Source of the DNA: a virus
Reading direction: 5' to 3' (one strand)
DNA: 40,168 bases
Virus record (IMG/VR): IMGVR_UViG_3300027852_000024
The translations under genes and the position numbers were made by a program. The first letter of the stretch is position 1; each line of letters begins with the position of its first letter. A model generated the notes under the pieces. The model did not search any database. It was not told the origin of the DNA and saw nothing but the letters and a program-made list of their open reading frames with translations. This document shows, in pieces, positions 2,984 to 19,200 of this stretch.

Positions 2984-2998
2984 ACAAGTATCCCCTTC

Positions 2999-3284: not shown

Positions 3285-3306
3285 GTATTTAATAGATCAA
3301 GACCAG

Positions 3307-3326: not shown

Positions 3327-3348
3327 AAAGAAAAGAGGGGAGACGATA

Positions 3349-3831
3349 ATGGACTTTGATTTTTTAACAGAGCAGATTGATGAAGAAACACAGCCAAAGT
3401 ATGTTGGCCCAAATATGAAGTCAGCGGTTAAGATGACACCACGTAAGTTTGCATCGTCAGTACTTGAGGTGTTTGACAAACTTGGTGGAGTGTCTTGGCT
3501 ATTGATAGAAGCACAAGCAGACCCTAAAGCGTTTCTTGCGTTGCTGTCTAAGATGATACCAAAGAGCGTGCAACTTGATGATCTAGCAGGTATAGCTGTA
3601 ACAGTAGTCGACCAATTTGGTAGACAAGTTAAAGCAGAAGCGGTAAACGCAAATAACCAAACACAAATTGCTGCCACAATACCTTCTGAAGGCACGGAGT
3701 CCGGTCAACTCCAGATTGCCACTGGTGGCAGCCAGACTCCCCGGGCGGTTCTCTCCTCCTCACCTGGGGAGTCACCCCCAACTGATGTTGATATAACAGA
3801 CATATTTAAGAAGGGGGTTGATGATGAATAA
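3349..3831 (+). CDS. Candidate small terminase subunit (160 aa)
   Basis: GAGGGGAG RBS before ATG 3349; lies immediately upstream of and overlaps the large terminase; assigned by position only. Confidence 0.45.
   Translation: MDFDFLTEQIDEETQPKYVGPNMKSAVKMTPRKFASSVLEVFDKLGGVSWLLIEAQADPKAFLALLSKMIPKSVQLDDLAGIAVTVVDQFGRQVKAEAVNANNQTQIAATIPSEGTESGQLQIATGGSQTPRAVLSSSPGESPPTDVDITDIFKKGVDDE
3714..3733. repeat. PAL-A dyad inside a CDS (GATTGCCACTGGTGGCAGCC, encodes IATGG)
   Basis: Read directly. Confidence 0.9.
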
Positions 3832-5236
3832 TGACTACTTAGAAGAAGCTGCTAAGGGTAGGATAACAATACCATACAATTTCCATCCTCGTGAGTATCA
3901 GAAGGATGTGTACAACGCACTGCCACTCGGGTTTAAACGCGGTGTAGTGATATGGCATAGACGAGCAGGCAAGGACAAGACATTCATAAACATACTTGCG
4001 CGTGAAGCCTTTAAGAAAAGAGGTACTTACTTCTATATACTACCTTATTATAAGCAAGCACGATTGATTATATGGGAAGGTATGGACTCGTCGGGCTTTA
4101 GATTCATTGATCATTTTCCAGATAAGCTTGTTAAGCGTAGAGAGAACCAACAGATGGTCTTAGAGCTAACAAATGGGTCTGTTATAAGAATGGTTGGGTC
4201 TGATAATATTGATTCGATTGTTGGGACAAACCCAATAGGCGTAATATTTTCCGAGTTCTCACTGCACAAGTCAGCAGCGTGGAACTATTTACGGCCTATC
4301 TTACTCGAAAATGGTGGGTGGGCGCTGTTCAACGGTACTCCACGTGGGAAGAACCCATTGTGGAAAATGTACCAACATGCTAAGAAGGATAAAACATGGT
4401 TCAGTGAGATATTGACAATTAATGACACCACAAAAGAGGACAACACACCAGTTATAACAGAAGAAGACATACAAGTTGAGCTTCAATCAGGGATGCCAAA
4501 AGAACTGATCCAACAAGAGTACTATTGTTCCTTTGATGCTGGTCTTGTTGGGTCTATAGTGGGTGATCTGATGGCCAATGCGAGGGAAGAGGGGCGTATC
4601 GCAAGGATACCTTGGGAGCCTGAGTTAAGAGTAACAACTGCGTGGGATTTGGGATTTGATGACACCAACACTATTTGGTTCGCGCAGTTCTCTGGCAAAG
4701 AAGTATGGCTGATAGACTGCTATAGCAACAACAGGAAGCCAGCACCACACTATGTTAACGTACTTAACCAGAAACCGTACACATATGAGGAACACTTCTT
4801 CCCACATGATGTGGAGGTGCATGAGTACAGCACTGGGCTTACAAGGAGGGAGACGTTTGAGAACTTAGGGCTAAAGAATATAATAACAATTCCGCGAACC
4901 GGGGTCGCTGATAAAGGCCAGTTGTCAGAAGGACACAACGCTATGAGGCAGACTATACCAAAGTGCTTCTTTGATAAAGTAAAGTGTGATGATGGCATTG
5001 AGGCATTAAAATCGTACAGGCGGGAGTGGGAGGAGAAGAAGGAGAAGTTCTCTGACTCACCTGTTCGTGATTGGAGTAAGCATTTTGCTGATGCGTTTAG
5101 ACAACTTGCATGTGGTCTTGGGATAAGGCGGACAGGTAATATGCCTATAAGTCAGTATGCGTCGCAGAGTTACAATGAGCTTGATGGACTCGAAGACGAT
5201 AATCTTAACTACGATCCATTTGAGGACTACTTGTAA
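3821..5236 (+). CDS. terL: Terminase large subunit
   Basis: Walker A-like HRRAGKDKT, Walker B-like GVIFSEF, nuclease-domain-like AWDLGFDDTNTIWF; AAGGGGG RBS; the track start at 3818 is TTG and the first ATG is 3821. Confidence 0.85.
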   Translation: MMNNDYLEEAAKGRITIPYNFHPREYQKDVYNALPLGFKRGVVIWHRRAGKDKTFINILAREAFKKRGTYFYILPYYKQARLIIWEGMDSSGFRFIDHFPDKLVKRRENQQMVLELTNGSVIRMVGSDNIDSIVGTNPIGVIFSEFSLHKSAAWNYLRPILLENGGWALFNGTPRGKNPLWKMYQHAKKDKTWFSEILTINDTTKEDNTPVITEEDIQVELQSGMPKELIQQEYYCSFDAGLVGSIVGDLMANAREEGRIARIPWEPELRVTTAWDLGFDDTNTIWFAQFSGKEVWLIDCYSNNRKPAPHYVNVLNQKPYTYEEHFFPHDVEVHEYSTGLTRRETFENLGLKNIITIPRTGVADKGQLSEGHNAMRQTIPKCFFDKVKCDDGIEALKSYRREWEEKKEKFSDSPVRDWSKHFADAFRQLACGLGIRRTGNMPISQYASQSYNELDGLEDDNLNYDPFEDYL

Positions 5237-5254
5237 CTATCTATTTTAAAACGC

Positions 5255-5283
5255 TTGACAAGTATACCACATTGTGGTATACT
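5255..5283 (+). promoter_or_regulatory. Second consensus promoter TTGACA-17 bp-TATACT with spacer palindrome CCACATTGTGG
   Basis: -35 at 5255-5260, -10 at 5278-5283; nearly identical to 3256-3284. Confidence 0.75.
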
Positions 5284-5329
5284 CGTACTCATAAATAAAA
5301 GTGCGCTAAAAATTAAGGGAGGATGAACT

Positions 5330-5539
5330 ATGAGTGGAGTTTTTGATTTTATATCGAACAAAGGGGATGGTGATGAGATTGCCACTGGTGGCGATCAGAC
5401 AGACCCTGGGGCCATCACGGAAGAAATGAAAGAAGAGGCAAAGAAACTTGCTGCGTCTTCAAAAGGTCTTGACATAGCTGAGTTCCAAAAGAAGCATAAA
5501 ATACACATACTCAATGTTGACGAACTCTTAAAGGGATAA
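5330..5539 (+). CDS. Small acidic hypothetical protein (69 aa)
   Basis: AAGGGAGG RBS; lies between terL and the portal gene. Confidence 0.6.
   Translation: MSGVFDFISNKGDGDEIATGGDQTDPGAITEEMKEEAKKLAASSKGLDIAEFQKKHKIHILNVDELLKG
5377..5396. repeat. PAL-A dyad inside a CDS (GATTGCCACTGGTGGCGATC, encodes IATGG)
   Basis: Read directly. Confidence 0.9.
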
Positions 5540-5541
5540 AT

Positions 5542-7200
5542 ATGAGAGCTACACAAACTGACATAGAGACTCATATAACGCAGAAACAATCGTTAGTTGT
5601 GTCAAGAGGGATGTTTGATTCTCACTGGCAGGAAATTGGCGAGCTTATATATCCAGAACACGCTAACTTTACCTTTACCCCAGCACCTGGGGAGAAGAGG
5701 CTGTCTAAAGTATTTGACTCTGTTCCGACACATGCTAATCAGTTATTAGCTTCCGGCCTGTTCTCGTTGCTAACAAGTTCAGCAAGCCCTTGGTTCCATC
5801 TTAGACCAGTTAACCTGATGATGGCGAAGTCTCGTGAAGTGAATGTGTATCTCGATGAAGTGTCGTCCATAATGTATCATGAGATAAACAATCCTGTAGC
5901 TGGGTTTTCTTCTGCTATACACGAGGGTTACTTAGAATATGGTGCGTTTGGTAATATGACTATACTACTCGAAGAAAACTTAGAGCAGTCTTCTTTACGT
6001 TTTATGTCTTTACCATTGTATGAGTGTCATTTTATCGAAAACGCCCAGGGCGTAATCGATACTCTATACAGAACTTATGATAGGTCTGTAGGATTCTTGA
6101 TGCGTAAATTTGGCGTTGAAAACTTATCCGAAGCAGCTAAAAAGTTTATAGAAGAGGACAAACTTGACACAATAATAAAAGGATTGCACGTCATCCTTCC
6201 AAGGGACTTAATCGATCATTACTCTATCAAGTCAACTGATTTGCCTTTTGCATCTATGTACATAGATATCACCAATACACACTTGATGCATGAAGGTGGA
6301 TTCCATGAGTTGCCTTTTATGGCAGCAAGATTCTATAAATCGACTAATGAGGTGTACGGTCGTGGCCCAGGATCGACAGCTTTACCAGATACAAAGATGC
6401 TTATGCGAGTTGTTCAGGTGACTATAAGGGCAGCACAAAAGACAGTTGATCCACCAATGATACTACCAGATAGTGGGTTTTTACGCCCGTTACGTACTGT
6501 GCCTGGTGGGCTGAACTACTACCAGCGTGGGAGACTGAACTCGAAAAAAGATATCGACATCATCCCTACTGGAAACCCTGGATTTGGTGTTGACTATTCT
6601 AAATTATTGCACGAAAAGATACGAGAGATATTTTTTGTAAATCAGCTACAACTTGATACCGGCCCGCAAATGACAGCAACAGAAGTAATGCAGAGAACAG
6701 AAGAGAAGTTACGCTTGCTTGGCCCACTTCTTGGGCGTGTGCAGACTGAGTTGCTTGGCCCACTTATTAGAAGGGCGTACGGTCTACTAATGAGAGCAGG
6801 TAAGCTGCCTGAACCACCAGCAGTATTAGGAGACGCAAAGTTAAAAATAACATATACGTCCCCAATAGCAAGAGCGCAAGAGCAAGTTGAGGCTAATGGG
6901 CTAATGAGGGCGCTCGGTATACTCGAACCAATGCTCAAGTACAGCCCAGAAACAGCAGATATATTTGACACTGATGCTATGGGTCGTGGAGTTTTTAACA
7001 TGTATAGCATAAGCCAAAAGTATCTTAAAGACGAGAAGCAGGTTAAGGCTATTCGTAGCTCACGAGCTAAAGCGGAACAAGACCGGCAAGAAGCAGAGAA
7101 TCTAAGAGCGACTGGACAGGGTGCCGATTCCATGGCGAGAGCAGGAGCAACAGTGCAAGAAGCTGGACTCGGCTCTGGTGATTTTGGGCCACTACAATAA
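5542..7200 (+). CDS. Portal (head-tail connector) protein
   Basis: 552 aa, follows terL and precedes scaffold and capsid; size and synteny as in T7 gp8-type portals. Confidence 0.75.
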   Translation: MRATQTDIETHITQKQSLVVSRGMFDSHWQEIGELIYPEHANFTFTPAPGEKRLSKVFDSVPTHANQLLASGLFSLLTSSASPWFHLRPVNLMMAKSREVNVYLDEVSSIMYHEINNPVAGFSSAIHEGYLEYGAFGNMTILLEENLEQSSLRFMSLPLYECHFIENAQGVIDTLYRTYDRSVGFLMRKFGVENLSEAAKKFIEEDKLDTIIKGLHVILPRDLIDHYSIKSTDLPFASMYIDITNTHLMHEGGFHELPFMAARFYKSTNEVYGRGPGSTALPDTKMLMRVVQVTIRAAQKTVDPPMILPDSGFLRPLRTVPGGLNYYQRGRLNSKKDIDIIPTGNPGFGVDYSKLLHEKIREIFFVNQLQLDTGPQMTATEVMQRTEEKLRLLGPLLGRVQTELLGPLIRRAYGLLMRAGKLPEPPAVLGDAKLKITYTSPIARAQEQVEANGLMRALGILEPMLKYSPETADIFDTDAMGRGVFNMYSISQKYLKDEKQVKAIRSSRAKAEQDRQEAENLRATGQGADSMARAGATVQEAGLGSGDFGPLQ

Positions 7201-7210
7201 CATAAAAGGA

Positions 7211-7230
7211 GACTGCCACTGGTGGCAATC
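7211..7230. repeat. PAL-A dyad (GACTGCCACTGGTGGCAATC) lying between AAGGAG (7206-7211) and ATG 7231
   Basis: Read directly. Confidence 0.9.
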
Positions 7231-7482
7231 ATGATTAATAACTTGCTTAATAAAAAAATACACAGAGCGTACCAAGATGTTTTCGACGCTGGTGCGCCAC
7301 AAGTAAAATTAGTACTCAGCGATCTATGCAAAGCACATGGGGTATTCGACGGAGGCTTTGATCCTAACCCACATATTAATGCTTTCAACAGCGGTGAGAG
7401 AAATGTAATACTAAGGATATTGACCATATTAAAAATGAAACCAGCTGATATTATAAATTTAGCAGATAATGGAGGAGTATAA
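7231..7482 (+). CDS. Hypothetical virion-module protein (83 aa; alternative GTG start at 7222)
   Basis: ORF between portal and scaffold; stop overlaps the next start (TAATG). Confidence 0.55.
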   Translation: MINNLLNKKIHRAYQDVFDAGAPQVKLVLSDLCKAHGVFDGGFDPNPHINAFNSGERNVILRILTILKMKPADIINLADNGGV

Positions 7483-8360
7483 TGCAACCAACAACCACAC
7501 CAACAGCAGAGACACAAGCACCACCAGCACCACCAGCACCACCAGCAGAGCCACCAGCACCAGCACAACCAGCACAACCAGCACCACATGAGACTTGGAG
7601 AGACAGTTTGCCTGAGGACATGAGGGGATTACCAACTCTTGAGAAGTTCAAAGATGAAACCGAAATGGTGCGGATGCCGGTCAATGTAGCTCGTAGCTAC
7701 ATTAACGCCGAGCAGCTAATTGGTAGGGACAAGTTGCCTATACCGAAAACACAAGAAGAGTGGGACAGTACTTACGAGCGACTTGGGAAACCAAAGAGTA
7801 AGGAATTGTACGTCTTCCCTGTAAAAGAAGGCACAGACCAAAGATTAGTAGATGAGTTGACTAAGGACGCTGAGTGGTTTAGAGACAAAGCATTTGAACT
7901 CGGCCTGAGTGAGAAGCAAGCAACTGAATTATTCTCATCTTTCACAGACAATACAGTGGCTAACATTGAAAATATGCAGTCAACTGGAGCTGCCGAAAAG
8001 CTCAATGCAGAAGTTAAACTACGTTCAGAATTTGGTGCCGCTTATGATGGCAAGATGGTTCTGGCTGGCAGAGCTGCAAGGGAACTTGGAGGGCCAGAGC
8101 TTATTGAACTGCTTGACAAGACAGGAGTTGGGAACCACCCTGCTTTTATAAAGTACAATATGAAGGTAGGGGCTATGATGGCAGAAGACTTAGGTCTTGA
8201 CAAGAATACAGGCGAGCTATTACAGTCGACGGAGTCAGTCAAGGATAAAATTTTGGGCATCCAAACTTCACCTGAGTACACAGATGCTACCAACCCCGCG
8301 CATGCAAACGCGGTGGCTAAGGTAGCAAAATTGATGGAACACCTATATGGTGGAAAATAA
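7482..8360 (+). CDS. Putative scaffolding protein
   Basis: GGAGG RBS; Pro/Ala-rich N-terminus, then a charged, helical-looking sequence; lies between portal and capsid. Confidence 0.55.
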   Translation: MQPTTTPTAETQAPPAPPAPPAEPPAPAQPAQPAPHETWRDSLPEDMRGLPTLEKFKDETEMVRMPVNVARSYINAEQLIGRDKLPIPKTQEEWDSTYERLGKPKSKELYVFPVKEGTDQRLVDELTKDAEWFRDKAFELGLSEKQATELFSSFTDNTVANIENMQSTGAAEKLNAEVKLRSEFGAAYDGKMVLAGRAARELGGPELIELLDKTGVGNHPAFIKYNMKVGAMMAEDLGLDKNTGELLQSTESVKDKILGIQTSPEYTDATNPAHANAVAKVAKLMEHLYGGK

Positions 8361-8481
8361 TCACAGCAGACAAGCATAAAGCCCTGCACACAATAGCATT
8401 TGGGCCTCCTTAGCATAGGAGACAACCCGTTGGTTAATGGGAAGAATCTTATAAACAAACACAACAATGAAGGAGGCTGAA

Positions 8482-9351
8482 ATGTCAGCTGAAATAACGA
8501 CCGCAATGGTCGAACAGTACAAGAGCAATGTGGCATTATTGTCGCAGCAAAAGGGATCGAGATTGCGTGGTGCTGTCCGTACTGAAAGTATTGATGGTGA
8601 GAATGTATACTTCGAGCAGATAGGCGCTACATCTGCACAGAAGAAAACCTCAAGGCATATGGATACACCACAGATAGACACTCCGCACCACCGCCGTAAA
8701 GTATCCGCCGACGATTATGTATGGGCGGATTTCGTAGACAAAGAGGATTTAATCCGCACTATCATTGATCCGACAAGCCCGTATGCAGTCAATGCTGTTA
8801 ACGCTTTCGGCCGATCAATTGATGACGTGATAATTGCAGCGGCAAGTGGAACAGCTTACACAGGGAAAACTGGTGGTACAGCAGTAACTCTGGGTACTGG
8901 ACAGCAAATTGCTGAGGGTAATGTCGGCATGACTGTAGAAAAACTTGTTGAGGCGAAAGGTATATTCTGGAGCAACGATATAGACGAGGATATCCCGCTA
9001 CATATAGTTATGTCATCTCAGCAGTATCAGGATTTGCTAAACATAACTGAGGTCACAAGCGCAGATTACAACTCAATTAAGGCTCTTGTCAAAGGCGAGA
9101 TCAATGAGTTCATGGGGTTCACCTTCCACCGTACGCAGAGGCTTTCTGTTGACGCGAGTGATATTCGTACATGTTTTGCATGGGCGCAGGATGGCATACT
9201 TCTTGGACTTGGTGCCGATATACACACAAAAATATCTGAGAGAGACGACAAGAATTATCTCACACAGGTATGGTGCGGAATGACTATTGGCGCAACACGT
9301 ATGGAAGAGAAGAAAGTTGTCGAAATATTCTGTGACGAAACCCCTGATTAA
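8482..9351 (+). CDS. Major capsid protein
   Basis: AAGGAGG at 8470-8476 favours ATG 8482 over 8467; 289 aa; synteny. Confidence 0.7.
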   Translation: MSAEITTAMVEQYKSNVALLSQQKGSRLRGAVRTESIDGENVYFEQIGATSAQKKTSRHMDTPQIDTPHHRRKVSADDYVWADFVDKEDLIRTIIDPTSPYAVNAVNAFGRSIDDVIIAAASGTAYTGKTGGTAVTLGTGQQIAEGNVGMTVEKLVEAKGIFWSNDIDEDIPLHIVMSSQQYQDLLNITEVTSADYNSIKALVKGEINEFMGFTFHRTQRLSVDASDIRTCFAWAQDGILLGLGADIHTKISERDDKNYLTQVWCGMTIGATRMEEKKVVEIFCDETPD

Positions 9352-9360
9352 TAAACCTGT

Positions 9361-9380
9361 GATTGCCACCAGTGGCAATC
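9361..9380. repeat. PAL-A dyad (GATTGCCACCAGTGGCAATC), perfect arms
   Basis: Between stop 9351 and AAGGAG/ATG 9406. Confidence 0.95.
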
Positions 9381-9405
9381 ACACCACATATAAGGAGATA
9401 CAAAC

Positions 9406-9891
9406 ATGGCTACTTTTTATTCAGAGCAGGTAACAAAGCTCGACTCTGTTCCTGCGGAACCAATAAATGTCGATGAACTACACGGCAAAGTAAGAATCGC
9501 AAGATTCGATTATACCCAAGTAGCTGAGGGAGCGGCTGATAGTGTGATTCAACTATGTAAAATTCCTGCTGGTAGAATACGTATCCTCGGCAAAGAGAGT
9601 GCTGTGTACCATAACTTGACAACCGGTACTGTCGATCTTGATATAGGATGGGCGGCGCATACTGATTTTGCTGGTGACGCAGTCGCTGCAGACGAGGATG
9701 GTCTTGACGATAATATTGATTGCGAAACAGCAGGAGTCATAAGGGTTGGTACTGTTGCAGCAGTACTGGCTGAGTGCCAGTCAAAAGTCCTTGAGTCACA
9801 GGCTGGCGTTACAATTACAGCCACAGTTAAGACTGCGGTAATTGCCGCAGACGACACTCTGAAAGGATATATCGCTTACGTGCTGGACTAA
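9406..9891 (+). CDS. Putative head decoration/cement protein (161 aa)
   Basis: Lies immediately after the major capsid gene; no motif recognised. Confidence 0.35.
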   Translation: MATFYSEQVTKLDSVPAEPINVDELHGKVRIARFDYTQVAEGAADSVIQLCKIPAGRIRILGKESAVYHNLTTGTVDLDIGWAAHTDFAGDAVAADEDGLDDNIDCETAGVIRVGTVAAVLAECQSKVLESQAGVTITATVKTAVIAADDTLKGYIAYVLD

Positions 9892-9926
9892 TAATAACCC
9901 TCAATCCGTTGCAGTTAGTTCAGCAC

Positions 9927-9956
9927 TGTCCCCATGAAAATTGTTTTGTGGGGACA
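9927..9956 (+). other. Stem-loop TGTCCCCA-N14-TGGGGACA after the capsid/decoration genes (no U-tract)
   Basis: 8-bp GC-rich stem read directly; possible attenuator or mRNA 3' stabiliser. Confidence 0.35.
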
Positions 9957-9987
9957 CTGAGGCACTAACAAATAAAAGGAGAGTATT

Positions 9988-10545
9988 ATGTCATCAGAAG
10001 TAGAAATTTGTAACGAAGCGTTGACAGCTATTGGTGCGAATACTATACTATCACTGTCAGATAACATAAAGACCGCACGTTTATGTAGTCTAAAATACGC
10101 TAATAAAAGAGATTATTTATTACGCAGGTATATATGGAACTTTGCAACAAAAAGGGCTGTTTTATCATCTGATGTGGACACACCTGATTTCGAGTTCAGT
10201 AAACAATTCACATTGCCATCTGATTGTGTGCAGTTCAGAGAACTATACCCAAACAATATAGCATACAGCATAGAAGGACGTAAGATTCTATGTGAGGAGT
10301 CAGTACTATATATGAAGTACACAGCGCAGGTAACAGACACTAACGAAATGGACACCACTTTTCGTGAGGCGTTATCAGCATTATTAGCCAGAGAGTTGGC
10401 TATACCACTTGCGGATAGTGTAAACTTGTACTCTCAGATGGACGAGCTGTACGAAGTAAAACTGGCAGAAGCAAAATTTGCTGGGTCAATCGAACAGGAC
10501 ACAGAAGCAATAGAAGCAACCGATTGGGAAAATTCACGAAATTAG
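9988..10545 (+). CDS. Tail tubular protein A-like / head-tail adaptor (185 aa)
   Basis: Size and position match T7 gp11-type genes preceding the large nozzle protein; AAAGGAG RBS. Confidence 0.5.
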   Translation: MSSEVEICNEALTAIGANTILSLSDNIKTARLCSLKYANKRDYLLRRYIWNFATKRAVLSSDVDTPDFEFSKQFTLPSDCVQFRELYPNNIAYSIEGRKILCEESVLYMKYTAQVTDTNEMDTTFREALSALLARELAIPLADSVNLYSQMDELYEVKLAEAKFAGSIEQDTEAIEATDWENSRN

Positions 10546-10565
10546 GATTGCCACTGGTGGCAATC
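10546..10565. repeat. PAL-A dyad (GATTGCCACTGGTGGCAATC), perfect arms
   Basis: Starts right after stop 10545 and is followed at once by AGGAGG and ATG 10576. Confidence 0.95.
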
Positions 10566-10575
10566 AGGAGGAACA

Positions 10576-13251
10576 ATGAAGTTTGACGCCATACAAAGTA
10601 GTTTCACATCCGGAGAAGTAAGCCCCAAATTCAGGGGGCAAGTGGAGACAGATGCTTACGCAGCAGGTGTTGGGCGGTCGGAGAATATGATAGTACAACC
10701 GCACGGAGGACTAATATACCGTGGTGGTTTTCATTATGTTGCCGAAGTAAAAGATCCAGCTAAGAAACCTATATTAGTTGGGTTTGATTACAAGAGTTTG
10801 TACTCATACATCTTAGAATTCGGAGAAAATTATATTAGGGTGTATGTGGACACTGAGCAAGTACAGGATGGCGCGTCGGCTTACGAAATAGGATCGACAT
10901 ACGCTCATTCGGAGTTACAAGATTTGTGCTTTAACCAAGACGACGACACTCTGTATATCACACACCCAAACCACCATCCAGCAAAATTAGTAAGAACTGC
11001 TGATGACGACTGGACTCTTTCAGATATCTCTTTTATGTTTGATCCAGTGTGGGCGCTAAAAAACACACCAGCAGATAACGATTGGAAATCAATTTGTTGG
11101 AGTCCTGAGCTATCTCTGTTAGTAATTGTCGCAAGTTCTGGCACAGGAAACAGAGTAATGACTTCACCTGACGGACTAACTGGTTCGCTACAAACTTCTG
11201 CTGCCGACAATGATTGGCGTTCTGTTTGTTGGAGTCCAGAATTATCCTTGTTCGCTGCTGTAGCAAATAACGGGACAAGCGATGGTGTCATGACATCACC
11301 TGATGGGGTTAATTGGACTTCGAGAACCGCTGCTACAGTTAGCGTTTGGGAGTCAGTTTGTTGGGGCGCTACTGCTGGGCTATTCGTAGCAGTATCTGGT
11401 TCTGGGACTGCTAATAGAGTTATGACTTCACCAGACGGGATTACGTGGACTACAAGAACATCTGCTGCTGACAACTATTGGAAGTCAGTCTGTTGGGCCG
11501 CAGAGTTGGCGCTGTTTGTAGTAGTATCTGCGAGTGGTACTGCTGACAGAGTAATGACTTCACCAGATGGAATAACATGGACTTCAAGAACTTCTGCTGC
11601 TGACAGAGGATGGGAGTCGGTGTGCTGGAGTCCTGAGTTGACTCTATTCGTAGCAGTTGCGGGTGATGGAATAGGCGATGGTGTTATGACTTCACCTGAT
11701 GGTATAACGTGGACTTCGAGAACTCCCGCGACTGATACTGTTTGGAAGTCAGTCTGTTGGAGTCCTGAGTTAGGGATATTTGTAGCCGTTTCTGGTTCGG
11801 GTAGTGGTAACAGGACTATGACTTCACCTGATGGTATAACATGGACTACAAGAACTTCACCAGCGAACAATTATTGGGAATCAGTTTGCTGGAGTCCAGA
11901 GTTAGCACTATTTGCCGCTGTTTCGAGTACAGGTGTTGATAATAGAGCAATGACTTCAAGCATCGGAAGGGAGGCGTGGAGAGTCGGCAACTATCCAGCG
12001 CTAAATTTTTTCTTTGAACAGCGTCATATATTCGCATCAACTCCATCTACTCTTAATGGTGTGTGGGGTAGCTGGTCTGGCGAATACAATAATATGACAT
12101 TAGGCACAGGTCTCGACAATCAAGGACTTGAGTTTATTATAAAAGCGGCGGTTAAATTTGTGTGGGCGTCACCTGGTCAAGAATTGATACTTGGTGGGAC
12201 AAACGCAGAGTTTAAAATTGGTGCTAATGCTGCAAACGAGGCTCTTACCCCAAGCAATATTAGGCCGACAATAGTGACGAGTTATGGTAGTTCAGCTAAA
12301 CACCCAGTAAGAATAGACGATAGTGTTGTATTTTTACAGAAAGGCGAAAGGGTATTCAGAAGGCTTGTAGCCAATAATAGATCAGGTGGGTACTCTGATT
12401 CTTATTCTGCGGAGAACTTGACAATACTTAGTGACCATATAGCAAAGAACGGTGTAAACAGCATAACTTATTCTTTACTACCAAGTTCTATTATGTGGGT
12501 AGCACGTACTGACGGAGAACTTGTAGGTCTAACTTACGAACCAGACCACAAGATTTTCGGGTGGCATCGCCACACACTTGGCGGAACAGACTCAAAAGTA
12601 CACTGGGTCGCAACTGCGAATGCTGTAGGTGAGTCACGAAAAGACGAGGTATGGGCAGTTGTAGAAAAGACTATAGATGGCAGTACTGTGTGCTATATCG
12701 AGTATATGGTAGAGGGGCTGTCAGACGAAGACGATATAGAAGACTCATTTTTTGTTGATTCAGGGGTCACGGTGACAGGCAGCCAGTTTACTTCTGTGCC
12801 TGACTTAGATCATTTAGAAGGTGAAGAAGTCAGTATATTCGGCGACGGAGCGATGCAAGCTTCTAAGACTGTATCAGGCGGACTTATAGTATTAGACACC
12901 GCTGTCGACAAAGCACAGATTGGGCAAGCATATGAGGGCGTTGTAGAGACACTACCAATAGAAGGTGGTAACGCAATCGGGACATCACAAGGAGTAATGA
13001 AGAGAATCAATTCTGTGTCCTTACGCTTGGACAGGTCTTTAGGGTTTAGCTTTGGTGGGCTTGTTGGGCCGCTTGACGAGTACTACTTTGGCCCGGCGAT
13101 AATGGACTCACCACTTGAATTGTTTACTGGTGACACAGAACCATCACCATTCTCTGGTGATTTTGACAGATCGTCAGTGTTAAAAGTATCACACGCTACT
13201 CCAATACCTTTTAATTTATTAGCAATAATGTACGAAGCGAGGACAAAATGA
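10576..13251 (+). CDS. Tail tubular protein B-like / nozzle protein with an inserted 7-bladed Asp-box beta-propeller
   Basis: 891 aa; synteny; residues about 170-477 form seven 44-aa repeats W.SVCWSPEL.LFVAV...G...RVMTSPDGITWT.RT. Confidence 0.6.
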   Translation: MKFDAIQSSFTSGEVSPKFRGQVETDAYAAGVGRSENMIVQPHGGLIYRGGFHYVAEVKDPAKKPILVGFDYKSLYSYILEFGENYIRVYVDTEQVQDGASAYEIGSTYAHSELQDLCFNQDDDTLYITHPNHHPAKLVRTADDDWTLSDISFMFDPVWALKNTPADNDWKSICWSPELSLLVIVASSGTGNRVMTSPDGLTGSLQTSAADNDWRSVCWSPELSLFAAVANNGTSDGVMTSPDGVNWTSRTAATVSVWESVCWGATAGLFVAVSGSGTANRVMTSPDGITWTTRTSAADNYWKSVCWAAELALFVVVSASGTADRVMTSPDGITWTSRTSAADRGWESVCWSPELTLFVAVAGDGIGDGVMTSPDGITWTSRTPATDTVWKSVCWSPELGIFVAVSGSGSGNRTMTSPDGITWTTRTSPANNYWESVCWSPELALFAAVSSTGVDNRAMTSSIGREAWRVGNYPALNFFFEQRHIFASTPSTLNGVWGSWSGEYNNMTLGTGLDNQGLEFIIKAAVKFVWASPGQELILGGTNAEFKIGANAANEALTPSNIRPTIVTSYGSSAKHPVRIDDSVVFLQKGERVFRRLVANNRSGGYSDSYSAENLTILSDHIAKNGVNSITYSLLPSSIMWVARTDGELVGLTYEPDHKIFGWHRHTLGGTDSKVHWVATANAVGESRKDEVWAVVEKTIDGSTVCYIEYMVEGLSDEDDIEDSFFVDSGVTVTGSQFTSVPDLDHLEGEEVSIFGDGAMQASKTVSGGLIVLDTAVDKAQIGQAYEGVVETLPIEGGNAIGTSQGVMKRINSVSLRLDRSLGFSFGGLVGPLDEYYFGPAIMDSPLELFTGDTEPSPFSGDFDRSSVLKVSHATPIPFNLLAIMYEARTK
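11083..12006 (+). repeat. Seven tandem 132-bp coding repeats (beta-propeller blades)
   Basis: ATGACTTCACC.GA.GG recurs near 11158, 11290, 11423, 11554, 11686, 11818 and 11950. Confidence 0.85.
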
Positions 13252-13709
13252 TAACTTACAAGCAGGAAGGGTATACCGATGTGCTTGGCGAAATGAAGAA
13301 CCTATTCAAGTCACAATGGGAAGAGGTTGGGCTAAACGCTCTGAGCGACCGCAACAGGGTACTTGACCCTAATTGGTCGATGTATGAGGCTCTGGACGGC
13401 GCCGGTAATTTACACGTGTACACCGCCAGGATTGCCACCAGTGGCAATCTCGTAGGCCACTGCATGTCCGTTGTGTACCCGCACCCGCACAGCAAGAATG
13501 TAATAGCTGCCGAAAATGACTTCCTGTACTTATCACCGAAGTATAGAACAGGATTCACGGGGGTTGGGCTTATAAATTTTGCTGTAGAAGAATTGAAAAA
13601 AGTAGCTGAGATAATCTTTTTTAACACGCATGTGCATAATTCATTTTTCCCTATACTACATAAGTTGGGGTTTAAACTTATAGAGCATAGGGCTATGCTG
13701 GAGGTTTAA
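13248..13709 (+). CDS. GNAT-family N-acetyltransferase-like protein
   Basis: ATGA overlap with the upstream gene; LSPKYRTGFTGVGLINFAVEELKK resembles GNAT motif A (R-x-x-G-x-G). Confidence 0.55.
   Translation: MITYKQEGYTDVLGEMKNLFKSQWEEVGLNALSDRNRVLDPNWSMYEALDGAGNLHVYTARIATSGNLVGHCMSVVYPHPHSKNVIAAENDFLYLSPKYRTGFTGVGLINFAVEELKKVAEIIFFNTHVHNSFFPILHKLGFKLIEHRAMLEV
13430..13449. repeat. PAL-A dyad inside a CDS (GATTGCCACCAGTGGCAATC, encodes IATSGN)
   Basis: Perfect arms. Confidence 0.95.
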
Positions 13710-13711
13710 CT

Positions 13712-14341
13712 ATGTCATCAGGACTTTCATTTGTGTCGAGCGCAGTAGGAGCTGTTGGGAGCTTATTTGGTAGTAGTTCATCAAGTAGCGCAGCAACAGC
13801 CCAAGCAAGACAAGCTACACGAGAAGAACAAATAGCCGCTGAACGTAAAGAACGAGAGCTACGTATACAGCGAGAACAGACAGATCGTGCGGCACGAGTA
13901 GCTGCTGAACAAGCTGAGTGGGAAGAGGGTGTGAGTTTAGAGAAAACAGTATTCACACAGGAACGAATACAAGAGGAAGCTGACGCAGTGAAAGCTTCCC
14001 AAATAGTAGGATACGCAGCAGCAGGTGTAAGCACACGCATTGGTTCTCCTGTATCAGTGATGGCCCGGACAGCTAAAACAGTACAAATTGAGAAAGAAGC
14101 TATAATGCGTGGTCATGAGCTAATGACAGAAGCACGCATGAAGGAAGTAGCCGAAATAGAAATGGGCGGCGAAGAAGCTTACAGATGGTTTACTGAAAGG
14201 ATAGAAGCAGAAACTGCGTACGAAATAGAAGGGCGTGAATCCGAAGCAAGTATGTATCGTAAACAAGCCTCGGATATAAAAATAGGCGGATGGATTTCAG
14301 CAGGATCGTCATTGTTGGGAGCCGCATCATCTTTATTTTAG
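13712..14341 (+). CDS. Internal virion / ejection protein A-like (209 aa)
   Basis: Gly/Ser/Ala-rich ends with a charged helical core; first of three genes in the T7 gp14-16 position. Confidence 0.45.
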   Translation: MSSGLSFVSSAVGAVGSLFGSSSSSSAATAQARQATREEQIAAERKERELRIQREQTDRAARVAAEQAEWEEGVSLEKTVFTQERIQEEADAVKASQIVGYAAAGVSTRIGSPVSVMARTAKTVQIEKEAIMRGHELMTEARMKEVAEIEMGGEEAYRWFTERIEAETAYEIEGRESEASMYRKQASDIKIGGWISAGSSLLGAASSLF

Positions 14342-14357
14342 TAAATAACATAGACAA

Positions 14358-14377
14358 GATTGCCACTGGTGGCAATC
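14358..14377. repeat. PAL-A dyad (GATTGCCACTGGTGGCAATC), perfect arms
   Basis: Between stop 14341 and GGGGAG/ATG 14394. Confidence 0.95.
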
Positions 14378-14393
14378 ACGGGGAGTTACAGTA

Positions 14394-16226
14394 ATGCCAA
14401 GAATACCACAATTACCGACATCAAAGGAATCCCATATAGGTGATTTTAAGATATCAACACCACGAGCAGCAAATATAAACGCACCAAGTGGACGACCAGC
14501 ACGTAACGCAGGAGGCGTAGGTGGTAGAGTGATTGGTGGTGCTGTCAAAGAACTGAGCGCAGTATTGAGAAAGATGTCACAGGAGTACTCTAAGAAAGAA
14601 GAGTTAACACGTATAGCGAATTCTCAGAAGTTACAATTCGAAATGAATGAGAAATTTAGGATTCGTAAAAAAGAAGAAGCAGAGAAAGTTGGGAGCCAAG
14701 CACTTGGGTTAGTAGAGAAGTTTAAACAAGATACAGAGGATTTAAGAGAAGGTTACATACCAGAAGACTTAGACCAAAGAACTTCTAACGAACTCAACCA
14801 GCATTTTAACTCGCAGTACAATTCACATGCTTCTTGGCTGGTAAACCACTCAATAAGACAGAGTTCTGTTGCTGACAGTGAGGCCCGGATACGTGCGATA
14901 CAAGACGCACATACCAATATAACTTCTATGGGTGTTGGCGACAGAGTTGGAATAGAGCGTGAGGTAATGAACACGCTTAAATTTGAGAAAGCTAGACACC
15001 CTGGCATAACAGAAGACCAGATGGAGACTAATGGCAGGTCGTTAAGAGAGGACTACTTAACTTTTGCGTTAACGAAGTGGGCCGCTGATAGTACTATTGG
15101 AGCATCTAATTTCTGGGAGAAGAACCAAGAGTATATAAAAAGCGCATTACCAAAAAACTATAATGTTATGGCAAAAAAGATGGAGATAGTTGAAGACGAT
15201 TCTACGTATGATATTGCGCTCGGAACTCTTGAGAGAATGTTTGGTGAAGACGATGCCGCAGCAGCTAAATTTGTAGACGAGGACACAGATGGCTTGCTAA
15301 AGTTGACCCCATCGCAACGATTAAAAATGTCGTCAACACTGTGGGCTAACAACAACCATAAGTTGGCGGAAGAAGAGCGCATAAAAAATAAGAAAGAAGA
15401 AGAGTATCTTATCAATAGCCATAATCGTTTCTTTGATCCCGAAACACGTACTCTTAACACCCCCGCAGCTTTGTCAGATCTTGAGCAGACATACAGATCA
15501 GGCGGAGTTGATTCCGCCATGTACGAGAGCAGACGTAAACAGTTGCTGACTGGTGGCGAGTTCAGCAACAGCCAAGCGCAAGATTTAATAAGAGATATTA
15601 ACAGCGTTGCGGTCACCACTAAAGGTGAAGTGCTGAATCGTATAGCAGGTACGAGCGCAAACCCCGCGCCGTTCTTCAGCGAGTTAAAGAAACGGCAAGA
15701 CCAGATATCCAGAGGTTTCACTTCTAACTGGTTTGATGTAGCGTATGACAAGTTCAACGCACTTGCGAGTATAAAGAAGAAGAAAGACTTACCATCAGAT
15801 GTGAAAGAAAAAGAATTACTTGTTAGCACAACAGAGCTACCAGCATTTAAAAAGCGTTTGGAAGAAGTTGCACGATGGGCTGGTTTGTCAGCTGGCGATC
15901 CAGAGATTGTTAACCTTGCTAACACCTTACTTGAGAGCGGCTGGTATTCTGACAAGCACCCATCATGGCACTCAGGCGGAGCCGCATGGAATGTATTTGG
16001 AGAGAAGTACCAGAGATTATGGGAGTTCCCTGAAGGTGAAGTTATGGAAGTATTACAGTCTCGTGGTCTTGAGACTGCCACTGGTGGCAGTCCCACTCTT
16101 TTCCAAAAGTACACTCCAGAAGAAGAAGAAGCTGTGGCAAGACTACATACTATGAATATACCAATCGACAGCACCAGTATAAAAAGAGCGCTCGAGATTA
16201 TAAAAATAGAAAAAGGTGGTGAATAA
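14394..16226 (+). CDS. Internal virion / ejection protein B-like (610 aa)
   Basis: Synteny; stop overlaps the next start. Confidence 0.45.
   Translation: MPRIPQLPTSKESHIGDFKISTPRAANINAPSGRPARNAGGVGGRVIGGAVKELSAVLRKMSQEYSKKEELTRIANSQKLQFEMNEKFRIRKKEEAEKVGSQALGLVEKFKQDTEDLREGYIPEDLDQRTSNELNQHFNSQYNSHASWLVNHSIRQSSVADSEARIRAIQDAHTNITSMGVGDRVGIEREVMNTLKFEKARHPGITEDQMETNGRSLREDYLTFALTKWAADSTIGASNFWEKNQEYIKSALPKNYNVMAKKMEIVEDDSTYDIALGTLERMFGEDDAAAAKFVDEDTDGLLKLTPSQRLKMSSTLWANNNHKLAEEERIKNKKEEEYLINSHNRFFDPETRTLNTPAALSDLEQTYRSGGVDSAMYESRRKQLLTGGEFSNSQAQDLIRDINSVAVTTKGEVLNRIAGTSANPAPFFSELKKRQDQISRGFTSNWFDVAYDKFNALASIKKKKDLPSDVKEKELLVSTTELPAFKKRLEEVARWAGLSAGDPEIVNLANTLLESGWYSDKHPSWHSGGAAWNVFGEKYQRLWEFPEGEVMEVLQSRGLETATGGSPTLFQKYTPEEEEAVARLHTMNIPIDSTSIKRALEIIKIEKGGE
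16073..16092. repeat. PAL-A dyad inside a CDS (GACTGCCACTGGTGGCAGTC, encodes TATGG), with both arms changed in a compensating way
   Basis: Read directly. Confidence 0.9.
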
Positions 16227-19200
16227 TGGCCACACAGAATTTGATATCGATGCTAAAAAAGCACGAGGGTTACAGGGCTAATATCTACAAAGACACACGA
16301 GGGTTTGATACTGTTGGGTATGGGCATAAAGTGACCTCACCAGAAGAGTACAGCAAAGGTGTTTCAGAAGCAGAAGCCGAAGCAATGCTTGTGCAAGACG
16401 CTGACAGAGCCAGGGCAGACGCAGAGAGAGTGTTCCCGAACTTGTCGAGCTACCCCTCTGAAAAACAAGATGCTTTTGTCAACATGACGTTTAACCTTGG
16501 CGCAAGCGGAGTTCTTGGATTCAAGAATATGCACACTGAACTACAAAAAGGCGACAAAACAGATTGGGATGTAGTCGGGCAACATATGTACGACAGCAAA
16601 TGGAGAGAACAAGTTGGCGACAGAAGCACTGAACTTATAGATATTATAAAGAAAAAAGAAGAAGCCGAAGCGGAGGTTAAAGAAGAAGCTGATTCTTTTG
16701 AAAAAATGAAGAAAGATTACGGTGTCGGTGACTCCTTCGAGAGAATGCAAGCTGAATACAAAACTCAGCAGATCATAGCGGAGGACCAAGGAATAGACGA
16801 GGACTACTTACTACCCGTAACAGCGGCTATAAGTGCATCGTCAGCTTTTTTGTTTGGGCTGCCAGCGGGGTTGGTAGCTGGTGGAGCGTCCCTGATAACA
16901 GAAGCAGGTAGCGCTATCTTGGGTAAGTTCGCAAAAAAGGTCGACCCTGCATTGGAGTTCCCTGTGTACTTTGCGTCACAGGTTGTTAGTGCTTTTTCTT
17001 TTGAGAACTGGCTGATTAATAACACTGTCAAAAAACTCGCAACTGCTGCTCCTAAATTCTGGACAAAAGAGTTCGCAGTAGCAGAAAGGAATGGGTGGCT
17101 GTCAAAAGAGTTTATCAGCGACACATCCGATATAGTCCGCAACATGGACATGGGGACAAAAGGCGCGAATAAAAAACTATTAAACCTGTACAAACAACAA
17201 GCGTACGACTACAGACTTGGAAAAGTAGGTAAGAGGTTGGAGAAATTAGAGAAAGTACCTTCAAAAGTAGCCGAAGCGAAGGACGTTATAACCCAACTCA
17301 GCAAGAAGAAAACTTTGCTTGATTCTGATTACCGTAGGTTAGCACGTATTGCTAAAGAGGATGCGTATATAGAGTATATGCCTAAGTTCAACAAGTTTAA
17401 AAACAATGCCGTAAATAAAGCAGCTAACGAGAAGTGGCAAGCATTACCAACACGAGACTTAGTGGAAGCCTTGAGAGCAGATGGTGGTATTCCTAAGAAC
17501 TACAAATTCGTTTCACCAGAGGTGGCAGAAGCTTTTGCAAAACGACATCCTGATTTGCTGAGTAAGACAGACAAAGCAGCACAACTTGAGAGTATAGCCA
17601 GAGGCTTTGACTACGAAAGCGTTGATGATGTTGTGCTTAGTGTGTTCAACACTCCAAACAAAAAACAGTTGCGTAGGATCGCATCTGCGGAATTGAAATC
17701 AGATTTTGATAAGGTGTTTATAAATGAAATATCTTCACGTGTAGCAGCTAAAGAAGCAGACTACCTGTATGAGTTGCACGGTAAAACAAAAGGATGGAAA
17801 GCTGGCCGGATATCTAAACAAAAACATATTGAGGCAACACGTAGATCAGAGGGGAAACTACCAGCAAAACTTGTTGCGATGGAAGTTAAGGCTGGTAAGA
17901 GAGCAACGTCTAAGTTGTTGGAAATACTGCAGAAGACAACAAAAAAAGATATTACACATCTACAGAGGGCGCACGCACAAAAGTTGGCTGAGTTCCAAGC
18001 CGCTGTTAGAGTAGAGAGAAAACTAAAAGTTATAAATAGAAGGCTACAAAGAAGCATTGGTATAGACGGCGAGTATGGCGCTCAACTTGACAAGTTGTTA
18101 GCCCCATTGTACAACAAGGCAGCAGGTAGACCAGCAGAGCATATGTGGAAGTTCTTGACTCGAAAGTACTATGATGAGGTGTCAATAGGAGCCGATATAC
18201 TAATCAAAAGATACAACGACTTGTTACAGACTTTACCTTTTACTGGTCGTACTTTTTTAGACCTTACTTACAACCAAGCTAAAGACCTTGACAACTTTGT
18301 CCGTGCTTTCAAATTTGTCGCCGAGAATGACAGATGGATAACCAGAATAGGTGAGAAGTATCGTTTAAAGCATCTTGTTTCCGAGATATACAACACCGCC
18401 AAGACAACTATTCCAAAGGCTAAGTTACTACAACCACGTGTTACAGGTTCACAGCTTGAGGAGTTATCAAGAGGCAGCCTTGGTAAGCTTGCTAATGCAA
18501 GAGAGTCTCTTGCTGATGTGGCTGGTGGGGCGCTTGCGTCATTAAAAAGGATTGAACCAATTTGTATACAGTTGGATGGTTTTAAAAATTTTGGCCCAGC
18601 ATGGAAAAATATATTCAACAGAACAGTGCAAGCGGAGACAGCAAAAGAAGCTTTGGGTTCTAAAGTATTTGGTAAATACGAAGAAATATTTGCAGCACAT
18701 AAAGCAGCTACCGGACTGAAACCTTCTAAATACTGGACTGCCACCAGTGGCAATCTTAATGGGTTAGCAATAAACAAAGAAACTGCTGTTCTGATGGCGC
18801 TAAATTCTAAGCACCCTAATAATATGGAAGCTATGCTAAGTGGGCTGAGGGTGTCTAAAGAAGCTATGATAAATTTTCTCGACGGAGCGATGTCAACTGC
18901 TGACAAAAAACTTGTTAACGATGTACTCGACACACTCGACGAATTGTACCCACTACTCGCTGAGATATACAAAAAGAAAACTGGTCTTGTACTACCACGG
19001 CCAGAAGGGGGTAGGTACTTCCCAATACTTAGGGACAGCAACTTCTCCAATATAAGCGAGAGTATTGATGATGTGTTCCTCGATACTGGTTCTGATTTAT
19101 TCTACACAGAGGTTAAGAAGACTTTTATGAAAGCCAGAGTAGGTGGAGTAAAAGCAGTGAAACTTGACTTTAGAGGACTGACGCAACACCTGGCGGATAT

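Follow-up and report, generated by a model that had tools for sequence, protein, structure and literature searches.

A dispersed palindrome selected at the nucleotide level obeys a reading-phase rule in a podovirus clade

Why does one palindrome recur inside unrelated phage genes in the same reading phase? The question is raised by IMG/VR record IMGVR_UViG_3300027852_000024, a complete phage genome of 40,168 nt (called here the window, meaning the whole stretch that was analysed), and by the 20-mer GAYTGCCACYRGTGGCARTC dispersed along it, which a flanking A before and a T after extend to a palindrome of 22 bp (AGATTGCCACCAGTGGCAATCT). A first-pass annotation of the letters alone had noted five plus-strand intragenic copies that share one phase and spell (I/T)-A-T-(G/S)-G, and had proposed that selection maintains the motif as DNA in its own right, genes admitting it only where the encoded peptide is small and flexible. 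We found that this proposal is supported and generalises to a family of related phages, in which a reading-phase rule and selection at the nucleotide level are established by our analysis.

Allowing at most two mismatches in a 14-nt core, the window contains 18 copies against 0.32 expected, a count matched by 0 of 100 shuffles; the genome total is about 20 copies, or roughly one per 2 kb. The family was collected by an exact-pattern scan of IMG/VR, which returned 49 loci, some 30 contigs, with 65-73% nucleotide identity to the window. The motif is abundant in all of them, and the family holds 234 copies with at most two mismatches, 185 of them non-redundant. Searches for loci with single proteins (the ParB-like protein and the exonuclease described below) found close relatives only.

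Reading phase and codon usage of the intragenic copies

The five copies lie at 3714-3733 in the terS candidate (3349-3831, plus strand; QIATGGS), at 5377-5396 in a gene for a 69-aa protein (5330-5539, plus strand; EIATGGD), at 13430-13449 in the gene of a 153-aa GNAT-like protein (13248-13709, plus strand; RIATSGN), at 16073-16092 in the gene of a 610-aa protein of internal-virion or ejection type (14394-16226, plus strand; ETATGGS, 134 nt before the stop) and at 18736-18755 in the gene of a 1388-aa gp16-like protein (16226-20392, plus strand; WTATSGN). Two of these labels are to be read loosely: "terS" reflects position only, and "GNAT" rests on the JGI name of a 59%-identical homologue and on a strand-turn-strand pattern in the alignment, with no Pfam match. 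An independent recount of the frames, the check that had been proposed with the claim, found no mixed phases, (motif start - ORF start) mod 3 being 2 in 5 of 5 genes (ORF, open reading frame). Every one of the five has its first G at the third position of a codon (phase 3) and encodes (I/T)-A-T-(G/S)-G; the other two phases would read DCH(W/Q)WQ and (R)LP(L/P)VA(I/V). Since neither of these phases contains a stop codon, with TG or with CA at the centre, the bias is not due to stops.

The first-pass estimate of a 1 in 81 chance for such agreement is only suggestive when applied to the window alone, and it is the family-wide count that is decisive. Genes in the family contigs were predicted with a codon-usage gene caller and the intragenic sites then grouped by orthology; frame calling by tblastx around the copies was discarded as noise, many contigs being 80-95% identical with matches in every frame. 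Unique coding contexts numbered 67 in phase 3, 10 in phase 2 and 6 in phase 1. With three more contigs added before orthology clustering, we obtained 60 clusters, of which 48 are in phase 3, 8 in phase 2 and 4 in phase 1 (48/60 by binomial against 1/3, p = 1.5e-13), and conservative merging of over-split clusters left 35 of 45 in phase 3 (p = 1e-9). For genes of at least 150 aa and sites away from gene ends, phases 3, 2 and 1 stand at 30:2:2. The rule is also obeyed in a sister lineage in which the motif has switched to a variant 22-mer, AGATTGCTACCAGTAGCAATCT.

The residues around the copies differ with the phase. Around phase-3 copies, E, P, K, Q and D are over-represented. The phase-2 copies, which read G-L-P-L-V-A-V, lie mostly 31-37 nt into the gene, in hydrophobic signal-peptide-like N-termini with flanks enriched in L and I. 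Phase-1 copies read D-S-H-Q-W-Q-S, a T-to-A change swapping Cys (TGC) for Ser (AGC), and they use the CA centre, so that Trp-Trp is avoided. One exception to the prevailing phase stands in the window itself, a degenerate self-complementary copy (GATAGCC..GGCTATC; GATAGCCACTGGTGGCTATC) at 27724-27743 in the primase-helicase gene (26661-29396, minus strand), which reads DSHQWLS in phase 1 and is kept in three orthologues; the phase rule is thus strong and not absolute. A copy at 3307-3326 would be intragenic, in phase 1, only if the next gene used an unlikely TTG start at 3256. Because the ATG at 3349 has a ribosome-binding site and orthologues begin there, this copy sits in the 5′ untranslated region of the terS candidate. 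Separately, one orthologue of the 69-aa gene (L035) contains two copies, at 2514-2533 and 2541-2560, 27 nt apart and both in phase 3 (EIATSGSPSEIATGGGP).

The codons separate selection on the DNA from selection on the peptide. The pattern [IT]AT[GS]G occurs 70 times in the 130,438 residues of the family proteomes, against 0.88 expected from composition; 58 occurrences are written with the exact motif core and 12 with one-base variants of it. These codons are rare in the phages, GCC accounting for 13% of Ala codons and GGC for 13% of Gly codons. The proposal was to be given up if homologues wrote the peptide with different codons, and they never do. The motif codons, or one-base variants of them, in all 70 peptides indicate that selection acts on the nucleotides. 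Synonymous-codon identity points the same way, at 0.76 in the motif and 0.53 in its flanks, a comparison that is supportive and blurred by close relatives and by a misaligned set for the 69-aa gene; codon usage makes the stronger case.

The opposite explanation, that the peptide (I/T)ATGG itself is selected and the nucleotide repeat is a by-product, could appeal to its presence in five unrelated proteins of the window. The 70 of 70 instances written with the same rare codons or a one-base variant count as its refutation; furthermore, the majority of motif copies are non-coding, the proteins that carry it are unrelated to one another, and motif-free orthologues have unrelated residues at the position. 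We give it practically no credence.

Origin and placement of the copies

The coding copies appear to have been written into existing protein sequence. In the alignment of the 1388-aa protein, TATSGN fills the six columns that hold RKMQPE or KQMAPD in distant orthologues; neither here nor at the motif of the 610-aa protein, when it is compared with its orthologue in locus L037, is there an indel. The motif of the 153-aa protein, IATSGN, stands in place of a beta-turn of DDK-K type between two strands, with two residues more in a loop of variable length; it is present in orthologues at 66% and 59% identity and missing at 49% or less. For the 69-aa protein and the terS candidate every orthologue carries the motif, in a linker rich in P, S and E. 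In the terS candidate, where it has the same place in 11 of 11 orthologues, this is a Pro/Ser-rich linker ahead of the C-terminal tail. The AlphaFold2 (AF2) model of the GNAT-like protein, built from a 3-sequence alignment, places a turn at S65-G66, and its pLDDT of 41 is too low for it to count as evidence.

The first-pass annotation had offered as an alternative a tiny element that inserts in frame, as Rickettsia palindromic elements (RPEs) do. The alignments contain no insertion signature at the coding copies. As these align either without an indel (1388-aa and 610-aa proteins) or with two extra residues (GNAT-like protein), RPE-like insertion is unsupported for them, and the alignments indicate that the coding copies arose by substitution and not by insertion.

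Intergenic copies present a different picture. At the junction of the gp11-like and gp12-like genes, more than 55 outgroup loci read TAATG or TGATG, as in translationally coupled genes. The clade instead has a stop, the motif, a new ribosome-binding site and a start, 30-38 nt in all, and two clade members keep the tight junction. By this comparison the copy at the junction (10546-10565; TAG, motif, AGGAGG, ATG) is an addition, and the intergenic copies in general look like additions, with one junction tested. A further observation comes from locus L166 (6230-6600; NCBI JAAEPM010002073.1), where a small ORF whose product resembles a hydrophobic membrane protein lies between duplicated segments of about 60 nt. 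Each segment combines the last part of the upstream gene with a partial (GCCACTGGTGGCA) and a complete copy of the motif, as though a gene had been gained or duplicated at a junction that carries it.

Such additions are what a selfish miniature palindromic element of the REP, MITE or RPE kind would leave, one that inserts, is mobilised in trans (by a nuclease or transposase, for instance) and survives in genes only as in-frame insertions. The roughly 30 extra nucleotides at the gp11-like/gp12-like junction, with two clade members still lacking them, and the duplicated junction with one and a half motifs around a small ORF would suit it, as would a weak GIY-YIG (SegE-like) match at 25354-25746. 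Against it speak the coding copies without an insertion signature, the absence of a target-site duplication (flanking conservation extends at most 1 nt on each side), and the failure to find a RAYT or transposase gene. The motif starts with (A)GAY, without the GTAG or CGTC tag of REPs, and in none of 185,579 species genomes is it multi-copy. Copies at orthologous sites are stable and old, with point mutation changing the centre of a given site through CG intermediates, and a concerted base switch throughout a lineage is not expected from independent insertions. We consider a selfish element quite unlikely.

Most copies are intergenic: across the family, 112 of 196 gaps of at least 20 nt contain one. 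The upstream stop codon abuts or overlaps the motif (median 5 nt), often as T-A-G with the G serving as motif base 1, a ribosome-binding site follows directly on the 3′ side, and the start codon lies a median of 17 nt after the motif. Neither this intergenic majority nor the ParB-family gene in the same genome had figured in the first-pass annotation. In the structural half of the window, the copy in the 5′ untranslated region of the terS candidate (3307-3326) lies 22 nt past the -10 hexamer of a sigma70-like promoter at 3256-3284, just ahead of the ribosome-binding site; the copy at the junction of the portal gene with an 86-aa gene (7211-7230) has a ribosome-binding site abutting its 5′ end and a GTG/ATG start in or just past it. 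Others lie between the major capsid gene and a 161-aa gene (9361-9380), ahead of the 610-aa gene (14358-14377), between the 1388-aa gene and the tail-fibre gene (20396-20415) and after a 310-aa gene (22717-22736). The copy at 25765-25784, between convergent gene blocks, forms the core of a bidirectional terminator-like hairpin (aaaaagcaGAC..GTCtgcttttt). Further on, a copy with one mismatch follows the DNA polymerase gene, which is on the minus strand (32050-32069), and another at 34628-34647 (minus strand) is the core of a terminator-like hairpin after the gene of the single-stranded DNA-binding protein (SSB), an arrangement shared with locus L164. Degenerate copies are found in the primase/helicase intergenic gap (29422-29441, left arm intact) and directly past the stop of the ParB-like gene (37208-37227, GATTGCCACTTATAGCAATC).

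The divergent replication and structural blocks are separated by a 2-kb non-coding region (1215-3255) in which six degenerate or variant copies cluster, at 1369-1388, 2345-2363, 2584-2609 (with an 8-nt spacer), 2640-2658, 2963-2982 and 3017-3035. Several of them are followed by a second palindrome, CCACAACACTTnGTGTTGT. The region also contains tandem repeats of 10 nt (x5.7, 1444-1500), 44 nt (x2.4, 1484-1587), 56 nt (x2, 1592-1702), 30 nt (x4.2, 2183-2304), 40 nt (x3, 2386-2498) and 16 nt (x8.4, 2824-2960), and it resembles an origin or iteron combined with a control region. The two sigma70-like promoters that score best, at 3256-3284 and 5255-5283 (the latter about 95 nt upstream of the copy in the 69-aa gene), have 11 of 12 consensus matches and share TTGACA..taCCACAaTGTGGTATACT; the 15-bp palindrome in their spacers is possibly an operator for a different regulator.

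Several general functions were considered for the motif and set aside. Extended stems with T-runs occur only at 25765, 34628 and, on the minus strand, 9361, the other copies leading into a ribosome-binding site or coding sequence, so that most copies lack the U-run and extended stem of an intrinsic terminator. A promoter for a phage polymerase was rejected, as no RNA polymerase gene was found in the window, the site is palindromic, and a ribosome-binding site and start follow within 10-20 nt. By inspection, the Chi-like heptamer CTGGTGG is present in one orientation of the centre only, and the centre is variable. A host repeat (uptake sequence or REP) was ruled out by a scan of 596 Gb in 185,579 species genomes, which returned essentially singletons; no genome contig had more than one copy besides two mis-binned phage contigs (L077 and L078). 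Of the 31 exact-motif matches in this collection, 6-7 are contigs of Desulfobacteraceae, Desulfobacterales or delta-proteobacterial metagenome-assembled genomes with 37-43% GC, mostly with an intergenic site (the Desulfobacteraceae-type matches being L050, L058, L065, L066, L069, L072 and L079). By tblastx these singletons have no homology to the phage or to one another, and their neighbours, read from ORF translations (a HicAB-like pair, nrdD), have no theme in common. They may hint at a host, or may be other mobile elements with the same site.

A ParB-family protein as candidate reader

The form of the motif bears on what reads it. Arm positions mostly carry 1.5-2.0 bits, except the Y/R positions 3 and 18, and 166 of 168 copies have a spacing of 2 bp. 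At the centre, 154 copies have a CA:TG step, facing either way, 10 have CG and 2 have TA; relative to transcription, 92 copies read CA and 62 TG. In the switched sister contig (JGI 3300017613; 17613_460, 34 kb), 13 of 13 copies have exchanged TGCCAC/GTGGCA for TGCTAC/GTAGCA (C7>T, G14>A), and 15 other contigs keep mainly C/G at positions 7/14. Such a lineage-wide symmetric switch implies that a trans-acting factor of two-fold symmetry reads the motif sequence-specifically and evolves along with its sites. The motif is confined to this clade, being missing from 72 outgroup loci (0.77 Mb) and from the complete genome of Pelagibacter phage Baldr, and the switch in the sister lineage is concerted and symmetric.

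A third state occurs in IMGVR 3300009105_000017, 3300009314_000027 and 3300022188_000059 (L001, L009, L027, L028, L044-L047), where position 7 is mixed C/T and position 14 mixed G/A. The two halves vary independently (C,A in 7 copies, T,G in 4 and T,A in 1, as counted in 9105_17 and 22188_59), which fits half-site recognition on duplex DNA better than hairpin stability. These lineages may represent a relaxed-specificity intermediate between the canonical and the fully switched motif.

The alternative to a duplex site is a single-stranded hairpin (9-bp stem and 4-nt loop, counting the flanking A-T pair) bound by a sequence-specific factor, in mRNA as a processing, stabilising or translational operator between stop and ribosome-binding site, or in lagging-strand DNA as a priming signal on either strand. 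The RNA fold has -11.4 kcal/mol (z = -4.4), the placement is as tight as such an operator would have it, and the concerted C.G to T.A switch keeps pairing. Four further observations favour a hairpin and weigh against duplex recognition: in intergenic copies there is covariation between positions 3 and 18 (complementary in 61 of 83, 46 expected), 3 of 24 copies with double mismatches are compensated where about 0.5 would be expected, the copies at 25765 and 34628 are cores of terminator hairpins, and that at 2584-2609 keeps both arms around its 8-nt spacer, here a loop. Quasi-palindrome template switching could, however, yield the compensated doubles without selection. The allowed variants are closed under reverse complement and the orientation is near random, so that an mRNA loop would have to be either CUGG or CCAG. 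On the sense strand, C.A mismatches outnumber U.G wobbles (15 v 7; 25 v 20), and the independent half-sites of the mixed lineages, with C,A commonest, also tell against stem pairing. For an intragenic copy there is no downstream start that it could regulate, a cluster of copies lies in the non-coding control region, and Rfam covariance models run over the whole window at the gathering score gave zero matches. We therefore regard the hairpin as a serious and rather unlikely alternative.

Copies at gene boundaries and in interdomain-like linkers could also be shared boundary sequences kept to promote homologous recombination, with modules and domains shuffled between co-infecting relatives. PeSL cassettes of T4-type phages are a precedent for recombination at shared boundary sequences. 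The window encodes a Gp2.5-like annealing protein and an exonuclease, and the duplicated junction of L166 would fit too. In the sections of the Cluster O mycobacteriophage account drawn on here, the repeat-flanked gene 14 of Corndog is a precedent, although its authors saw few rearrangements at the repeats (PMC4351075). Second-order selection for evolvability would hardly keep 18 of 20 positions almost unchanged across lineages whose ParB-like proteins diverge to 47% identity, and it leaves the dyad symmetry, the fixed 2-bp spacing and the concerted symmetric switch unexplained. Recombination strikes us as a very improbable reason for the repeat.

For a duplex site, the genome itself offers a candidate reader, a 367-aa protein of the ParB/Noc/KorB family (37249-38352, minus strand) with an N-terminal domain of CTP-binding type, a helix-turn-helix (HTH) and a C-terminal coiled coil. 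Pfam matches to ParB_N and HTH_ParB are weak only. The AF2 model from a 30-sequence alignment has a pLDDT of 86.4, and its best PDB matches in Foldseek are Noc 7nfu (E = 4e-6), ParB 6t1f, 7bnr and 6sdk, and KorB 8qa9 (E up to 3e-4), over 260-296 columns of two-domain chains that comprise the N-terminal and HTH domains. GHHRLQA (GxxRxxA) and an EN motif (ENKDDW) are conserved in 30 homologues, and the HTH segment LGD-TWSRQTIQDAL resembles the ParB HTH signature, with SRQAIDFAI in the switched lineage. The model shows a predicted ParB-family fold.

The palindrome varies with the lineage. The canonical motif is retained by contigs with ParB-like proteins of 47-66% identity, and the protein of the switched lineage is 37% identical. 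A distant relative (L182, IMGVR_UViG_3300037755_000785; ParB-like protein 28%, terL 43% identity) has, at 2744-12841, about 13 copies of a different palindrome, GGGGTGAAACGTTTCACCCC (gGGGTGAAACGTTTCACCCc), in 13.7 kb; its half-sites resemble everted parS halves, and one copy lies directly upstream of its ParB-like gene. The ParB-like gene is absent from the complete outgroup genome Baldr, and the outgroup loci are too short to show its presence or absence directly. By tblastn against 50,697 phage records the protein had no match. A pelagiphage-like outgroup contig (L102, IMGVR_UViG_3300009134_000007, 3551-17106) lacks the motif and contains 5 copies of caYGGACAAAC-NN-GTTTGTCCrtg, a palindrome of like architecture with long arms and a 2-bp centre.

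Together with the hairpin-like features described above, other points count against a ParB-like reader. No ParA partner was found, with no KGGxGK[ST] in any frame of the window and no ParA match among the annotated genes; a repeated palindrome is missing from 26 other contigs that have ParB_N-domain genes; and the site, at 20-22 bp, exceeds parS (16 bp), NBS (14 bp) and OB (13 bp) in length. Any clade-specific gene would give the same phyletic correlation with the motif. The copies are only marginally regular along the genome (coefficient of variation 0.66, P = 0.05) and the largest gap is not unusual, which also gives regular spacing, as for priming or packaging, no more than marginal support.

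Weighing both sides, we judge the chances about evenly balanced that the motif represents putative genome-wide duplex binding sites for the phage's own ParB/KorB/Noc-like protein. ParB-family proteins load as dimers on palindromic sites scattered over a replicon. The 22-bp palindrome would be read as double-stranded DNA by a dyad-symmetric, sequence-specific protein, the ParB/Noc/KorB-family protein being the most likely reader, and selection would favour many copies, about one per 2 kb, in a compact genome with little spare DNA. Intergenic copies would be wedged between stop codon and ribosome-binding site; coding copies would be built by point substitution, with the encoded peptide deciding whether a copy survives. 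Phase 3, (E/Q/K)-(I/T)-A-T-(G/S)-G-(N/S), would fit hydrophilic loops and linkers, phase 2, G-L-P-L-V-A-V, would fit signal-peptide-like N-termini, and phase 1 would be accepted only with the Cys-to-Ser mismatch. Both the binding and its outcome are candidate roles that we infer: binding may bring KorB-like transcriptional control or silencing, or a Noc/ParB-like organisation of the replicating DNA.

Genome context, related systems and meaning

The first 127 nt of the window (1-127) are identical to the last 127 nt (40042-40168), a direct repeat that is explained by overlap in a circular assembly or by direct terminal repeats as in T7. PHROGs matches give the plus-strand structural block a T7-like layout, with the terminase large subunit (3821-5236), portal (5542-7200), major capsid protein (8482-9351), tail tube protein (10576-13251) and internal-virion proteins (13712-20392), the last including the 1388-aa protein with its N-terminal lysozyme motif; all are on the plus strand. 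The minus-strand replication block encodes a ligase, primase-helicase, SNF2-type helicase, family A DNA polymerase, Gp2.5/Enc34-type SSB, PD-(D/E)XK exonuclease and the ParB-like protein. PHROGs and Pfam scans of the window found no RNA polymerase, integrase or ParA gene (ParA was also sought by motif), and scans of the window proteins, a few short ORFs excluded, gave no match to integrase or repressor families, an absence of match that is not proof. Among cultured phages, Pelagibacter podophages come closest, their major capsid protein being 55% identical; megablast of 25 kb of the window against the 50,697 phage records found no match at the DNA level.

Three features of the window stand apart. 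A 130-aa ORF that ends the structural block (25354-25746, plus strand) is the source of the weak, sub-threshold match to the GIY-YIG domain of SegE-type homing endonucleases (E = 0.006). An ORF running off the window start contains a hexamer repeat, (TGTCAT)x8.7, at 257-308. A 285-aa ORF (357-1214, minus strand) with an internal 54-nt repeat (x2.2) matches only PHROGs families of unknown function.

Among the phenomena described so far, the nearest is the 17-bp dyad repeat of Cluster O mycobacteriophages, a descriptive class and not a mechanistic one. In the sections of its description drawn on here (PMC4351075), Corndog and its relatives have more than 30 copies of an invariant inverted repeat with a short variable centre, genome-wide and about one third in coding regions; the asymmetric centre shows no consistent orientation relative to transcription, the function is given as unknown, and the authors predict a dimeric DNA-binding protein with a role other than promoter control and mention proteins with ParB-like domains. 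The present motif is similar in being one inverted repeat in tens of copies, intergenic and coding and free of orientation, in a phage that is not obviously temperate and encodes a ParB-like domain protein (PMC4351075). It differs in sequence (theirs is TGTTCGG-N3-CCGAACA), arm length and spacer, and the Cluster O phages are siphoviruses of Mycobacterium; a reading-phase analysis, a lineage-specific motif switch and tight packing of stop, motif and ribosome-binding site do not appear in those sections (PMC4351075).

By analogy, the nearest mechanistic models would be KorB-OB of RK2, Noc-NBS of Bacillus and ParB-parS, as the 367-aa protein matches their N-terminal and HTH domains and keeps the GxxR and EN motifs. 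Their sites are palindromes bound by dimers, with 12 OB sites on RK2, about 70 NBS, and parS often inside genes. Unlike these systems, ours has a site of 20-22 bp against 13-16 bp, set more densely (about 1 per 2 kb) in an apparently lytic podovirus, with ParA and KorA not found. In the temperate Cluster A phages, stoperators (bound by gp71 in L5) are 13-mers without symmetry that a monomer reads and that point in the direction of transcription (PMC9283540, PMC6550527). They share with the motif a high copy number genome-wide, mostly in short intergenic gaps, and act away from promoters, whereas the motif is a palindrome of free orientation (92:62) in a genome where repressor and integrase were not detected.

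Uptake sequences of Haemophilus and Neisseria favour certain frames and poorly conserved positions and inflate the peptides they encode (Findlay & Redfield 2009, PMC2817400). The likeness is that a DNA motif selected for itself accumulates in genes with a frame bias; the peptide enrichment is about 80-fold here and about 2-fold there (PMC2817400). Those sequences are 9-12 nt long, occur in hundreds to thousands of copies in cellular chromosomes and are tied to competence, unlike a site of 20-22 bp in a 40-kb virus. RPEs are insertions of about 100-150 bp; the motif resembles them as a short palindromic repeat partly translated in frame. REP/SMAG-type palindromes (PMC3733652) are elements of host chromosomes with a GTAG or CGTC tag and RAYT transposases. 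The motif departs from RPEs and REPs in that its coding copies are substitutions, the tag is absent, no transposase was found and no host copies were seen. A last comparison is with the start-associated sequences (SAS/ESAS) of Cluster K, from which the motif differs in being palindromic and in lying also deep inside genes and in terminators. SAS include the ribosome-binding site, are asymmetric and are tied to starts. The resemblance is that of a short repeat immediately upstream of the starts of a subset of genes (PMC3203893). A literature search for the exact core sequence found only an unrelated plant paper, and dispersed palindromic repeats are known from a few phage groups, Cluster O being the best known.

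Taken together, these results are a clean and very strong demonstration, with a pentapeptide enriched about 80-fold, that a cis-acting DNA site can dictate viral protein sequence. Placement is specific to the phase, in loops or in signal peptides, and a Cys-to-Ser compromise is tolerated in the least favourable one. For the binning and annotation of these uncultured phages the motif serves as a marker of lineage, and it marks true gene boundaries and start codons; annotators should be warned that the recurrent IATGG/TATSG peptides are not a protein domain. The ParB/Noc/KorB-fold protein is a concrete and testable candidate for the reader. Going further, we put forward tentatively, and at somewhat less than even confidence, that a lytic T7-like podovirus of marine waters or sediments uses a CTP-dependent ParB/KorB/Noc clamp with about 20 loading sites, that the density of these sites has reshaped the genome and that protein and site co-evolve. 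Coupled gene junctions would have been split, and (I/T)ATGG loops and GLPLVAV signal-peptide cores would have been written into proteins. If this is true, the canonical motif, the relaxed 7/14 lineages, the switched lineage and the distant palindrome would form a natural series in which a regulator and tens of its sites change specificity together.

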